Source: an uncultured candidate division Zixibacteria bacterium (GTDB lineage: Bacteria > Zixibacteria > MSB-5A5 > GN15 > FEB-12). From it: a DNA stretch of 64,000 nucleotides. The notes below the pieces were generated by a model. That model worked only from the letters and a program-made list of their open reading frames with translations, was not told the origin of the DNA and made no database searches. The position numbers were made by a program, and so were the translations under genes. Shown here in pieces: positions 17,981 through 57,385 of the stretch (positions within the stretch are counted from its first letter, which is position 1; each line of letters opens with the position of its first letter). Location: the NCBI GenBank assembly GCA_963735035.1, contig CAVTJJ010000004.1, positions 320,001-384,000 of the forward strand, given 5' to 3'.

Positions 17981-18143
17981 TTTCGGGACCCGCCGTCACA
18001 CACCAAAGTTTTTGGGTGACTGGCATCTGATAATCCTGTTGAATTTGGGAGGTTGGGCGGGTTGGCAGGTCGAAACCCGTGTGGTTTCGACATTATGCCT
18101 TTTCACCCCACTCAACCGGAGTGTTGAAAATGTATATGTACTC

Positions 18144-18272
18144 GTCATTGCGAGCGAAGATGGCCCGCCGTCAGGCGGGACATCGTAGCGCGGCAATCTC
18201 AAGATTGTTGCGGCAGTGCTATTTGAGATCGCCACGTCTCGCCCACGAGGCGCGGTCGAGACTCGCGATGAC
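18144..18272 (+). repeat. 129-bp MITE/REP-like element with terminal inverted repeats
   Basis: GTCATTGCGAG...CTCGCGATGAC; near-identical 129-bp copy at 29947-30075. Confidence 0.9.
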
Positions 18273-18331
18273 AGCGAAAGCACTTTTGCAACATCCCCCG
18301 ACGGGTGGGAATTTGTACGTGTGAGGAAGAT

Positions 18332-18835
18332 ATGAAACGCAAAGTAACCCTTCGAGGCATTCTCATCGTTCTGGTCGTGTTGATTGTGGTCGCGCAGCTC
18401 GTACCGGTCACGCGGGACAATCCGCCGATCCAGTCCGATTTCAACGACAACGCCGCGGTGAAGCAGGTGCTGAAGAAGTCCTGCTATGATTGCCATTCCA
18501 ACGAGTCGGTTTGGCCCTGGTATAGCTATGTCGCGCCGGTGTCGTGGCTGGTGGCGAGCGACGTTCATGAAGCGCGCCAGAAGATCAATTTCTCCAACTG
18601 GGGTCTGATGCCGGCGACGAAACAAAAGCTCGCCCCGCAAAATATGCTGGATGAAATCGACGAAGGCGGCATGCCGCTGCCTATATACCTGATCATGCAT
18701 TCCAACGCCAAGCTGACCGACGCCGATAAGGCGACCATTCGCGCCTGGGTGGAAGGTGGTACGTCAAGCGACACAACCGGCAGTACGACAGGCGACACGA
18801 CCAAACCGGTCGAGCCGGAAGAAGAGAGCGAGTAG
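18332..18835 (+). CDS. Monoheme cytochrome c (Haem_bd domain)
   Basis: SCYDCHSN, WPWYS.VAP.SW, NFS.W, MP..Y..MH; GAGGA RBS. Confidence 0.9.
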   Translation: MKRKVTLRGILIVLVVLIVVAQLVPVTRDNPPIQSDFNDNAAVKQVLKKSCYDCHSNESVWPWYSYVAPVSWLVASDVHEARQKINFSNWGLMPATKQKLAPQNMLDEIDEGGMPLPIYLIMHSNAKLTDADKATIRAWVEGGTSSDTTGSTTGDTTKPVEPEEESE

Positions 18836-18879
18836 TCGGTTTGGGTGGCCCACCCGCTGCTATGTACTGTGTCAAGGGC

Positions 18880-19070
18880 TTTCTGTTCAGGCATAGGACT
18901 CGAACCAGTCTGCTATTCGTGGTCGCTGACTGGCAGCGCCACAGGCAATGTATCCGCTCGTGACCTGGCGAGGCAGCAGACTTGCGGACGTGGTCTCGGT
19001 TGGCCCGAGCCACAGCGGGTGGGTCGCTGTTCTCGCGTTAGCTTGGTACGGTTCCGACTCCTTGGTTATC
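18880..19070 (-). ncRNA. Predicted bridge/seek RNA of the IS110 element
   Basis: Non-coding region 3' of tnp; two stem-loops with internal loops matching target and donor junction; ends approximate. Confidence 0.75.
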
Positions 19071-20129
19071 TTAGGCGGCCGCACACGGCTCATAGGCAAC
19101 GTTATCAAGCAGAACCCGCCTGACTGCCAAGACCAGTCGTCGAGCTACCGCCACTATGGCTCGTTTGCCGCCGGCACGTTGCTTGATCCGGTTATAGACC
19201 AGTTGTAAGTGTGGGTCCTTCCGAACGGCAATCCAGGACGATTCCACTAACAAGCCCCGAAGATAGCTGTTGCCCGTGCCGGTAATCCGACCCATCCGGA
19301 CATGATCACCGCTGGAATACTGCGAAGGTGTCAGTCCCACATAAGCCGCCAATTGCTCAGCCCGTCCAAAACGACCGACCTCATGCAATTCCAACAGCAG
19401 AGCCATCGCCGTAATAACCCCTATGCCGGGAACGCTACTTAACAGCCGAACTCGATCACGATACTGTGGCAGTCGTGACAACTCCCGCAACAGTCGTGTC
19501 TGCAACGCCAGCTGGTTACTTACCAGATCGTACATCTCCAACAACCGCTCGTAGCTCGCCTGAGCCCAGACATCTGCCAAACACACCTGTCTCAGACGCT
19601 CTAATAACGGACCGGTCCACCGACCCGTCCCACTGCACACTGAAATACCATATAAGGCCAACTCCGATTTGATCCGACTCTGAAGACGTACCCGATCTTG
19701 AACCAATTGACGACGACGACGTAAGACCTCTCGGTGACCCCGCTGACTCTCATCCGGAACCCAGACCTTCTTCAACAACCCTAACGACAGCAACCAGGCC
19801 AGCTTCCGGCTATCCCGCTTGTCCGTCTTCACCCGATTACCGTAGGCCATCGGCACCAAGCTCGGCGGCGTTACTACGCACTGACCACCCCACGCTACCA
19901 CACAGTCGTGCAGCCAAAAACCAGAAAAACCCGCCTCGTAAACCACGGACACACACCCAGGATCATACCGATCCAGCAAACACCGCAAAGACGCCCAATC
20001 CCCGTTAATGCTGCCACAGAACAGTTCCACTTCTAACGTCCTCACCGTGACAAACCACTGACGCTTGTGAACATCCACGCCAACAAAAACAGCACTTCCC
20101 ACTTCCGCTCCAACTTCGTACCTTCTCAT
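19071..20129 (-). CDS. IS110-family transposase/recombinase
   Basis: DEDD RuvC-like domain (GVD, YEA, KTDKRD); C-terminal SVPGIG...F...QLAAYVGLTP..YSSG; AGGAGG RBS. Confidence 0.96.
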   Translation of the reverse strand: MRRYEVGAEVGSAVFVGVDVHKRQWFVTVRTLEVELFCGSINGDWASLRCLLDRYDPGCVSVVYEAGFSGFWLHDCVVAWGGQCVVTPPSLVPMAYGNRVKTDKRDSRKLAWLLSLGLLKKVWVPDESQRGHREVLRRRRQLVQDRVRLQSRIKSELALYGISVCSGTGRWTGPLLERLRQVCLADVWAQASYERLLEMYDLVSNQLALQTRLLRELSRLPQYRDRVRLLSSVPGIGVITAMALLLELHEVGRFGRAEQLAAYVGLTPSQYSSGDHVRMGRITGTGNSYLRGLLVESSWIAVRKDPHLQLVYNRIKQRAGGKRAIVAVARRLVLAVRRVLLDNVAYEPCAAA

Positions 20130-20351
20130 CTGAGCCTCCTGTTCTAAGGATCTATCGTTGTCTTCAGACCACGATACGATACCTTGTCCGAACAGAGGCT
20201 CAAATCACGAACAGTATCATAGTTACTTGCGGGTGGGATTGTGTCGTGCGCCGAGGGTGGATTCAATCTCTGATCGGCAGGGTTCCATCCCTGCCGGTTC
20301 TTGTATCGGCCGGTTCGGTGCCCCAGCGCTTGCGCTGGGCTTGAAGAACTC

Positions 20352-20380
20352 TTGACGCAATCTGATTGTTGGGCTATTAT
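20352..20380 (+). promoter_or_regulatory. Putative sigma70 promoter
   Basis: TTGACG-N17-TATTAT upstream of the ORF at 20480. Confidence 0.5.
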
Positions 20381-20479
20381 TCCATCATGCGAATTTGGTG
20401 TGCGGGGCTTTGTCACGAAGACCATAAACTCACCTGCAAGCAGGTGAGCGACTTGGACAAAGAATTGTGCGGTGGCAAT

Positions 20480-21421
20480 ATGAGACATTGTGTGATGAGT
20501 CTTGTCGTGTGTTTCGTGGCGCTATGGGTAGTCTTGGCTTCGAAAGTGCTCAGCAGTGATGAGATCGGTAGTTTGGACATACGTTCCATACCTGGCAATG
20601 ATGATTATGGGTTGGCATCTGCGCACACGACTCCGGATGGCAAGCAGTTTGTATATTATCTTTGCGTTCGTGGCGGTAGCGACACGGTTGAGTATACTCG
20701 TGTGATTGACTCTATAATGTCCTGTGTCCCAATCAAACCGTCCGATTCGCTTGACCTCAGCTATCTCGCCTGCAAGAGTGACAGTGTCATTCTATTGGCC
20801 CTCGATATCCTTAAGCCGCATGTCCGGGATACACTGCTCACGCTGTTCTTTCCCGATTGCTCGATTGGAAAGATCAACACGTACTTCTTTTCCAGAAGAG
20901 AAGCATTGCTTGGGCTGAGCGGTCTTCTTCCTGACTCCACTGGTGAGCCATGGCATGTCATTATTGGCAGGATTACATCGCGGGATAGCATGGACACAAT
21001 CGCTTATGTTTCAGGGGGTAATTCCGTCACACTTTCAAGTGATGGCACCGAGGTGTTTCTCAACCGCTTCACCAAATTCGCTCCCAACACTATACCTACC
21101 ATTTCTACGGCCGTGTACGATCTCGTGGCCGATTCGCTCTTGGATCCGCTGAGCAAAGCAACAAACACTAGTGGCGCTTTTCGGTTAGCGCGTGAACTCC
21201 CGCTATACTACCTGAGAGCTGATCCGGTGTCCGGGACCAACGTATGGAGGTGGGATGCCATCAGGGGAGAAGAGCAGGTATCTCATTTCTTGTTACCCCA
21301 ATGGGTGACACGCTTCAATCTAACTAAGGATTCGGTTCTGTGTGTTGTTGTGGACCAATCCCATAAGACTGCTGGCGAACTAATTGTGTCTATCCCGCTG
21401 GAAGCTTCTGGTATCAAGTAG
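20480..21421 (+). CDS. Hypothetical secreted, beta-rich protein
   Basis: Signal-like N-terminus; less GC-biased codon usage than neighbours; no recognised family. Confidence 0.65.
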   Translation: MRHCVMSLVVCFVALWVVLASKVLSSDEIGSLDIRSIPGNDDYGLASAHTTPDGKQFVYYLCVRGGSDTVEYTRVIDSIMSCVPIKPSDSLDLSYLACKSDSVILLALDILKPHVRDTLLTLFFPDCSIGKINTYFFSRREALLGLSGLLPDSTGEPWHVIIGRITSRDSMDTIAYVSGGNSVTLSSDGTEVFLNRFTKFAPNTIPTISTAVYDLVADSLLDPLSKATNTSGAFRLARELPLYYLRADPVSGTNVWRWDAIRGEEQVSHFLLPQWVTRFNLTKDSVLCVVVDQSHKTAGELIVSIPLEASGIK

Positions 21422-21477: not shown

Positions 21478-21630
21478 CGGCAGGCCCGGAGGCCTGCCGA
21501 CTCTTGCATCTACTCTGCGAGCGAACCCACAGCAAGCTGTGGGGTACCCATACATAAAAGCGCCGTCAGGCAGAGACGCCTGACGGCACGGTTACTTACA
21601 TGGGGCAGACCAGGAGGTCTGCCGCCCACA
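21478..21630. repeat. Cluster of four different REP-like hairpins
   Basis: CGGCAGGCCCGGAGGCCTGCCG, CCCACAGCAAGCTGTGGG, GTCAGGCAGAGACGCCTGAC and GGCAGACCAGGAGGTCTGCC, each recurring elsewhere in the window. Confidence 0.85.
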
Positions 21631-53037: not shown

Positions 53038-53390
53038 GGGTACCCCACAGCTTGCTGTGGGATCGACCGCTAATGCTGTCTTACCCCGCTTTAGGCGGGG
53101 CACCCAAGGGTTGTTTGTTATGTGCCCGGCAGATGCCCACATCTGCCGGCTCGTACCTCTAACGGTCTATGTCTGTCTTGCCCCGCTTCAGGCGGGGCAC
53201 CCATGAATGCGAGCGACAAGTCCGCACGTTTTCCCCTTGCGTCACACAGCGGCGTAAGTTATTCTACCTAACAGGAGACAGCATCCCCTGTATCTTGAGG
53301 GTTCCGGCACGACACCACGTTAATTGTATTCGGCAGGGTTCCATTCCTGCCGGACGGTCGAAAGGGGTAGCCCACAGCTTGCTGTGGGTT
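53038..53390. repeat. Dense REP cluster
   Basis: Two CCCACAGCTTGCTGTGGG, two CCCCGCTT.AGGCGGGG, one GGCAGATGCCCACATCTGCC and one CGGCAGGGTTCC..CCTGCCG. Confidence 0.85.
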
Positions 53391-56954: not shown

Positions 56955-57385
56955 TGGTGGACGAGGACGTCCATCACGCACGACGGGTGGGATTCTTATG
57001 CCAACGGCCGAAAGGCCGTCACCCCCGAGGCGTCGGGGGCCCAGTCAAGTTCGCTGTGAAGAGATAGTAGACATCAGGAAAGATGCTCGAAACAATTCTC
57101 TTATTGAAAACTCGCTCTTGTGAACATCCATCTTGACTGGGTTCCTGCCTTCGCAGGAATGACAGGACTCGCGTCCTGTTTCAGAGTCGATCAACCCACA
57201 GCAAGCTGTGGGATACCAGGTACGAGTCGGCAGATGTGGGCTCGCCGCGGCGGACCGGGCACTTTGCACATCAAGCGGCGGGCCGGGCACTCTTCATGAG
57301 CGGGCCACACAACTGTCTTGCCCCGCTTCAGGCGGGGCACCCACTGGCCTTCAACCCCCAGTCAGGCAGAGACGCCTGACCGCAC
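56955..57385. repeat. REP cluster
   Basis: TGGACGAGGACGTCCA, TTCCTGCCTTCGCAGGAATGAC, CCCACAGCAAGCTGTGGG, CCCCGCTTCAGGCGGGG and GTCAGGCAGAGACGCCTGAC. Confidence 0.8.

Follow-up and report, generated by a model that had tools for sequence, protein, structure and literature searches.

Insertion sequences (IS) of the IS110 family lying in repetitive extragenic palindromic (REP) sequences were reportedly surveyed by Tobes and Pareja in 2006, and both the targeting of REPs by this family and the bridge RNA or seekRNA mechanism are already established. IS621 of Escherichia coli is described as combining a DEDD recombinase, REP targets, a CT core, a two-loop RNA whose left and right guides each contain the core, and a promoter formed at the junction of the excised circle (PMC11208160). 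ISPa11 of Pseudomonas aeruginosa, a member of the IS1111 subgroup, is described as inserting at a specific position in host REPs. The non-coding stretch that follows its tnp gene gives rise to a seekRNA, which was purified together with the transposase and corresponds to both strands of the target (10.1101/2024.04.26.591405). In Pseudomonas putida, the IS110-family elements ISPpu9 and ISPpu10 are reported from REPs in several copies per genome (PMC12288879). Here, we describe an IS1111-type element flanked by REP-like sequence in the genome of an uncultured candidate division Zixibacteria bacterium (3.6 Mb assembled in 6 contigs; label G000). The window analyzed is a stretch of 64,000 nucleotides, contig C4:320001-384000. 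With a probability of about 0.87, the element is an active or recently active IS1111-type IS that undergoes RNA-guided, site-specific insertion into one variant of the REP-like palindromes of its host. In what follows, labels beginning with G denote the genomes compared (41 of the family in the pattern search), and labels beginning with L denote loci from the collection scans.

The element proper spans 1367 bp (18859..20225, minus strand) and carries a transposase/recombinase gene on the minus strand (19071..20129) encoding 352 amino acids, with a DEDD RuvC-like domain (PF01548, E = 1.4e-12) and an IS110 C-terminal domain (PF02371, E = 2.4e-25), both past the curated cut-offs. The product scores 226.7 bits against the NCBIfam model NF033542, 'IS110 family RNA-guided transposase' (cut-off 140), and its C-terminal domain resembles the structures of the IS621 and ISCro4 transposases at E ~1e-11 (1.5e-11 for the IS621 structure 8wt6). 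The family assignment proposed in a first-pass annotation of the window is hereby confirmed. Furthermore, the translation contains GLTPSQYSSG, corresponding to the C-terminal motif GL-P----S/TG described for the IS1111 subgroup (Siddiquee et al. 2024, 10.1101/2024.04.26.591405), and its length slightly exceeds the ~330-350 amino acids of that subgroup. The non-coding sequence is longer downstream of the gene (212 nt, 18859-19070) than upstream of it (96 nt, 20130-20225), a layout reported as an IS1111-type trait (PMC11208160; 10.1101/2024.04.26.591405). Subterminal inverted repeats were read from the sequence at the right end (18860..18870) and the left end (20211..20222), with CTATGTACTGT pairing with the reverse complement CTATGATACTGT. 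They begin 1 and 3 nt from the element ends, match at 11 of 12 positions with one indel, because of which an ungapped repeat finder missed them, and fall within the 7-17 bp characteristic of the IS1111 subgroup. The element carries every IS110 and IS1111 feature that was examined.

The element is bordered by two 9-nt arms (18849-18857 and 20229-20237) that form a 100% complementary inverted pair, as the first-pass annotation had also noticed. All target features lie on the plus strand. The left half of the host REP-like target (18844..18856) consists of a GGTGG tail (18844-18848) and CCCACCCG (18849-18856), and is followed by the first copy of the core CT (18857..18858; AG in transposase sense). 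The second copy of the core (20226..20227), placed by comparison of the junctions, precedes the right half of the target, TGCGGGTGGG (20228..20237).

Short copies of these flanks recur within the non-coding region downstream of the transposase gene. An 11-mer, CCCACCCGCTG (19023-19013, transposase sense), is identical to the flank, an 8-mer, CCGCAAGT (18987-18980), to the left junction, and ATAGCAG (18916-18910) to the right-end tip of the element plus the core. By our own estimate, ~0.005 matches of 11 nt are expected by chance when 209 nt are compared with 2 x 48 nt; the 8-mer and 7-mer matches are not significant taken singly. In the minimum free energy (MFE) fold, the predicted target-binding module of the bridge RNA or seekRNA (18968..19036, minus strand) comprises an outer stem, an internal loop and an inner hairpin (18989-19013), and CCACCC and CCGCAA lie on facing sides of the internal loop, between the outer stem and the inner hairpin. 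The predicted 5' guide strand, CCCACCCGCU (19014..19023, minus strand), is identical to the right half of the target (bottom strand) together with the core and resembles a right target guide (RTG), whereas the predicted 3' guide strand, CCGCAAGU (18980..18987, minus strand), is identical to the left half of the target (top strand) together with the core AG and the first base of the left end and resembles a left target guide (LTG), the two terms being used as in the description by Durrant et al. 2024 (PMC11208160). The two segments match opposite strands of the target, overlap at the core and flank an internal loop. The guide that complements the top strand precedes the other (5'), the order described for IS1111-type seekRNAs, in which the top-strand complement lies 5' of the bottom-strand complement (10.1101/2024.04.26.591405). 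The predicted donor-binding module (18896..18967, minus strand) consists of a hairpin followed by AAUAGCAG, in which positions 18910-18916 equal the right-end tip plus the core. The two predicted modules share one layout, in which a 5' guide is followed by CU, a hairpin, G, a 3' guide, AG and one base.

The predicted structure was compared across the non-coding regions of eight relatives, in which 22 base pairs in three helices were scored. Of the cells, 96.5% were paired and 14 pairs showed compensatory changes, counts that are biased in favour of the structure in that the helices had been drawn from the same eight sequences. When the partners were slid by 1-3 columns as a control, 29-59% of the cells were paired and 1-7 pairs were compensatory; none of 500 shuffles reached the observed covariation score. 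Compensatory changes affected 8 of the 9 pairs in the outer stem of the target module and 6 of the 9 pairs in the donor-module hairpin, and the 3' strand of the donor module, AAUAGCAG, was invariant in all eight relatives, as was CGAATAGCAGA. A scan of positions 18000-21000 against Rfam returned no family at E<=1. For the 5' donor guide, several registers were tried by eye and none fitted all relatives. Variants of the overall architecture also occur: in G154 (L100), some tens of nucleotides are inserted within the hairpin of the target module and again behind the donor strand; L115 lacks this hairpin and in L119 it is replaced by another stem, and both L115 and L119 have CA where the others have CU.

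The predicted guide strands differ among relatives in step with the insertion sites. In a matrix of 5' (right-half) guides against targets, each guide fitted its own target best or joint best in the source genome (8 contiguous positions plus 2 in the core), G108 and G153 (7+2 each), and the same held for the guide of G154 once G-U wobble was allowed (8+2 positions with one G-U pair). G133 shares the guides of G108 and its right flank is missing, leaving only the left-half guide for comparison; the left-half guide discriminates less than the right-half guide. The 5' guide changes with the flank in G108, G133, G153, G154, L114 and L128, and the 3' guide of G108 and G133 reads CAGCAAGU against the flank CAGCA-AG. 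A close metagenomic relative (L114; sharing 218 of 260 nt across the end region) is inserted in GGTGCCCCACCG-CT and carries the guide CCCCACCGCU, and its target belongs to a sister REP subfamily with 17 copies in the source genome. In L128, on a Zixibacteriota chromosome, the guide matches the flank over 8+2 contiguous positions. A protein search of the genome contigs yielded further relatives at 27-52% identity, which were too distant for alignment of the non-coding region and were left aside. These comparisons support the proposal of the first-pass annotation that a REP-like family is what the element targets: the arms belong to repeats of the host, both target halves have copies inside the element, and in relatives these copies change together with the flanks.

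A strongly palindromic target would also suit recognition of the REP hairpin or cruciform by the transposase protein itself, in the manner of the REP-associated tyrosine transposases (RAYTs), the matches in the non-coding region then being incidental or serving some other role. The 5' strand of the donor loop, which the guide scheme leaves unexplained, also counts on this side, and both the guide role and its logic are read here from sequence and covariation. However, the 11-mer match is improbable by chance, guides and flanks change together in at least six elements with different targets, some of them non-palindromic, and experiments on members of the family are described in which the RNA is required (PMC11208160; 10.1101/2024.04.26.591405). 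We therefore regard recognition by protein as unlikely and favour RNA-guided insertion.

A search of the source genome at the DNA level with the whole element recovered 5 full copies and 1 partial copy at a contig end. Four of the 5 full copies are identical across 1367 bp. The fifth (C4:851861-853229) is near-identical, differing from the other four by two 1-nt insertions, one in the region of the 3' outer stem of the target-binding module and one just before the start codon, and by one substitution in the 5' leader, and this copy may be impaired. The inner flanks, GGTGGCCCACCCGCT and, opposite it, TGCGGGTGGG, are the same at all 5 full copies, both target halves being identical throughout, and the outer sequences are unrelated. 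Insertion into unrelated sequences, which would have spoken against REP targeting as first proposed, is accordingly seen at none of the full copies. Furthermore, all 5 share one orientation relative to the asymmetric GGTGG tail. The partial sixth copy, at the end of contig C3, has one altered arm. It lies in a segment (985005-989185) that is collinear with the start of C4 (1131-4418) over >3 kb at 92-98% identity, IS copy included, and this collinearity reflects either duplication of the segment or the presence of two strain variants in the assembly. For this reason, the sixth copy represents not an independent insertion but the copy-3 locus itself, duplicated or in a strain variant. The sixth copy is also what would be expected if copies had multiplied through the duplication or recombination of segments flanked by REPs and not by transposition into REPs, yet the 5 full copies share nothing past the ~25-bp repeat on each side, and four of them are identical over their whole length amid unrelated surroundings, which makes such a spread very improbable as compared with transposition into REPs.

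The empty site was sought as the pattern CCCACCCGC-N(1-6)-GCGGGTGGG, which occurs at 37 sites: 27 in G002, 9 in G063 and 1 in the source genome. G002 belongs to the same genus and is 100% complete in 140 contigs; no copy of the element was found in it by DNA search, nor by protein search at E<=1e-60. All 37 sites have a two-base centre, which is TT in 30 of them. Uninterrupted sites equal to the exact predicted empty site, CCCACCCGCTTGCGGGTGGG, account for 22 of the 27 in G002 and 8 of the 9 in G063, and the single uninterrupted site in the source genome has AT at its centre. Among 15 loci that were fetched, the G002 sites carry the GGTGG tail, including all 5 exact ones, such that the left half of the target is found entire within uninterrupted repeats. 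Removal of the element and one CT from the window yields the 20-mer found uninterrupted in G002 and G063. The window's left flank maps to contig C17 of G002 and the right flank to its contig C3, and since no repeat follows the orthologous gene in G002, comparison at the orthologous site is uninformative.

The core was placed from relatives at 50-66% protein identity, which have the same element ends and different flanks. In G153, G154 and G140, AG (transposase sense) is the sole sequence common to both junctions, and a 2-nt core is common to both junctions in every relative in which both flanks are present. The occupied site of G108 reads CCCACAGCA-AG-[IS]-AG-CTGTGGGG, and uninterrupted copies of CCCACAGCAAGCTGTGGG in the same locus differ from it by the element and one AG. 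As reconstructed from these junctions, the empty site is palindromic over 20 bp and centred on TT, and the CT core is duplicated on insertion. Two other reconstructions were considered: an empty site with a TGC repeat and a one-base centre, and one with the CT core further left and a five-base centre. Neither occurs in the source genome or among the 37 pattern sites. The former is the one put forward in the first-pass annotation, as a 19-mer with a single T at its centre; the apparent TGC repeat arises because the right-end tip of the element extends the match by one base.

Two further claims of that annotation are affected by this shift of one base. The element had been placed at the exact centre of the palindrome, and with the core at positions 9-10 of the 20 bp, abutting the dyad axis, this holds to within a base, although not exactly. 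A single guide had been thought nearly to fit both orientations, only the centre base differing between them. Instead, there are two predicted guide strands, both centre bases differ and one of them belongs to the core, and the orientation is fixed, as seen at the 5 full copies, because the centre is non-palindromic (TT versus AA) and overlaps the core. In addition, the arms are host repeat sequence and are not carried by the element, because copies away from the element are present in the source genome and uninterrupted sites in its relatives G002 and G063, and because relatives of the element have other flanks; the possibility raised at the outset that they travel with it is not borne out. 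That the arms are terminal inverted repeats moving with a larger unit (18844-20237) that inserts regardless of REPs would account for identical arms at all 5 full copies and for the want of a perfect empty site in the source genome, but it is already contradicted and barely credible, as G002 and G063, in neither of which the element was found, contain 22 and 8 uninterrupted copies of the full palindrome, respectively, the same element ends are bordered by unrelated sequence in relatives, and 60 of the 65 copies of the GGTGGCCCACC half in the source genome lie away from the element.

After the GGTGGCCCACC half there usually come a short centre that varies and GGTGGG, and the source genome contains ~100 loci of the form CCCACC...GGTGGG, divided into subfamilies by the centre. 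Only 17-20% of the repeats lie inside a long open frame, as compared with 84% of the genome. The repeats are short imperfect palindromes present in many copies outside genes and are REPs in this sense. Four palindromes in the window (21526-21543, 53044-53061, 53371-53388 and 57195-57212) had been likened to the target at first sight. They are indeed present, but they read CCCACAGC-AA/TT-GCTGTGGG, usually with a GGTAC tail, and constitute a different subfamily, here called REP-B, that the guides of the window copy do not match: its right-half guide agrees with REP-B at 5 of 10 positions, of which 1 is contiguous from the core. The REP-B 18-mer has 40 copies in the source genome, and a third variant has 17. 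REP-B is the target of the relatives G108 and G133, and also of G051 if judged by its guide.

Of the 15-nt stretch spanned by the two predicted guides there are 5 perfect copies in the source genome, all of them occupied, and none unoccupied; the near-matches, 11 distinct loci with one mismatch and 69 hits with two mismatches (both strands counted), are without the element. The many landing sites foreseen for the element are not found on this count, given that no perfect site is empty and that the 11 one-mismatch sites have been left empty.

The source genome also encodes six RAYT-like Y1-transposases of ~175-219 codons (C4:1466644, C3:433887, C3:865329, C6:22391, C3:165272 and C4:8010). Fragments of three of the six genes were scanned, and all gave NF047646 (REP-associated tyrosine transposase) as the best match, one of the three past the cut-off; a CCCAC...GTGGG palindrome lies within 900 bp of one of the six. 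Intergenic palindromic repeats of other types, such as a GGCAGGG...CCCTGCC hairpin, were noted at 20271-20296, ~20321-20341, 21514-21548 and 21597-21630. G001 and G002, two genomes of the same genus, contain numerous further copies of them, indicating several repeat families in the genus.

Several observations weigh against RNA-guided insertion as we interpret it, in addition to the bias in the covariation counts mentioned above. The MFE fold has an unremarkable energy (z -1.45). In the donor module, the 5' strand (UUGC/UUAC ahead of CU) has to be shifted by one base before it fits the left end. The guide of G140 has one mismatch to its target, and in G051 the right flank of the element, which is altered, misfits the guide, which fits the REP-B consensus standing uninterrupted nearby. 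The source genome contains no perfect empty site, the empty site being known from other genomes and from relatives of the element. Finally, the absence of the element from G002 could be an effect of its assembly in 140 contigs; the 22 intact sites there stand regardless.

By analogy with IS621, ISEc11 and ISPa11, the 212-nt region would be transcribed into a bridge RNA or seekRNA that binds the DEDD recombinase. One loop of this RNA would pair with the two target strands, the second loop with the ends of the element as joined in the excised circle, and strand exchange would take place at the CT core. Joining of the ends would, moreover, create a promoter for the transposase gene, TTGACA-17-TATGAT. 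Its candidate -35 box, TTGACA (18870..18875, minus strand), was read from the right end, and TTGAC is kept in relatives; the candidate -10 box, TATGAT (20216..20221, minus strand), lies upstream of the transposase gene, and TATG(A/C/T)T is kept in the left ends of all relatives. The two boxes would be separated by 17 nt on joining through the 2-nt core, by 18 nt with the 3-nt repeat and by 14 nt with the other alternative. A promoter scan of the integrated copy revealed no promoter-like site on the minus strand; the junction promoter would be formed only once the ends of the element are joined. Four sequencing runs, all represented by short contigs, showed no joints and no piece bridging a junction.

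Three guide-target pairs, namely CCCACCCG in the source genome, CCCCACCG in the close metagenomic relative and CCCACAG in other genomes, suggest a broader idea, which we put forward tentatively and as rather doubtful: an IS1111-type lineage in Zixibacteria might track the diversifying REP subfamilies of its hosts by changes of one or two bases in the guides. If so, REP drift and guide change would amount to a chase of one parasite upon another, and the pattern of occupancy would provide a natural read-out of guide specificity.

With regard to the surroundings of the insertion, the gene directly upstream (18305-18835, 176 amino acids) ends 8 nt before the GGTGG tail and 13 nt before the palindrome arm. 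The element splits a hairpin placed after this gene, where a terminator or an mRNA-stabilising REP would sit. The metagenome contigs L112 and L113 match the element over no more than the final 20-odd bases of its right end, in an unrelated and apparently coding context, and these matches may be a chance occurrence in a very large collection or a remnant.

This locus offers a dissected natural case of RNA-guided targeting of the IS1111 type in a candidate phylum without a cultured model, in which the empty site, the core, the putative guide strands, their predicted structure and the candidate junction promoter are all legible from the sequence. It points to natural retargeting between sister REP subfamilies by single-base changes in the guides, and it carries a warning that reconstruction of a junction from a single copy can err by one base where the end of the element extends the target. 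The known mechanism is unchanged by this case, which is a clear but ordinary example of it.

Compared with the described systems, ISPpu9 is accompanied by additional solo copies of the gene for its small RNA, whereas the DNA search with the whole element recovered here the six IS copies only. The element resembles IS621 in its DEDD recombinase, REP targeting, CT core, predicted two-loop guide logic and candidate junction promoter. In contrast to IS621, in which the RNA lies upstream of the gene and the order of the guides is reversed, its predicted RNA lies downstream, with the right-half guide 5' of the left-half guide, and it has subterminal inverted repeats of 11-12 bp. From ISPa11 it differs in the phylum of its host and in the sequence of the REP. 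Nonetheless, a published description of ISPa11 being set here beside a sequence, the two elements agree in being of the IS1111 type, in their insertion into REPs, in the position of the (here predicted) guide region downstream of the gene and in the order of the guides, the complement of the top strand coming first.

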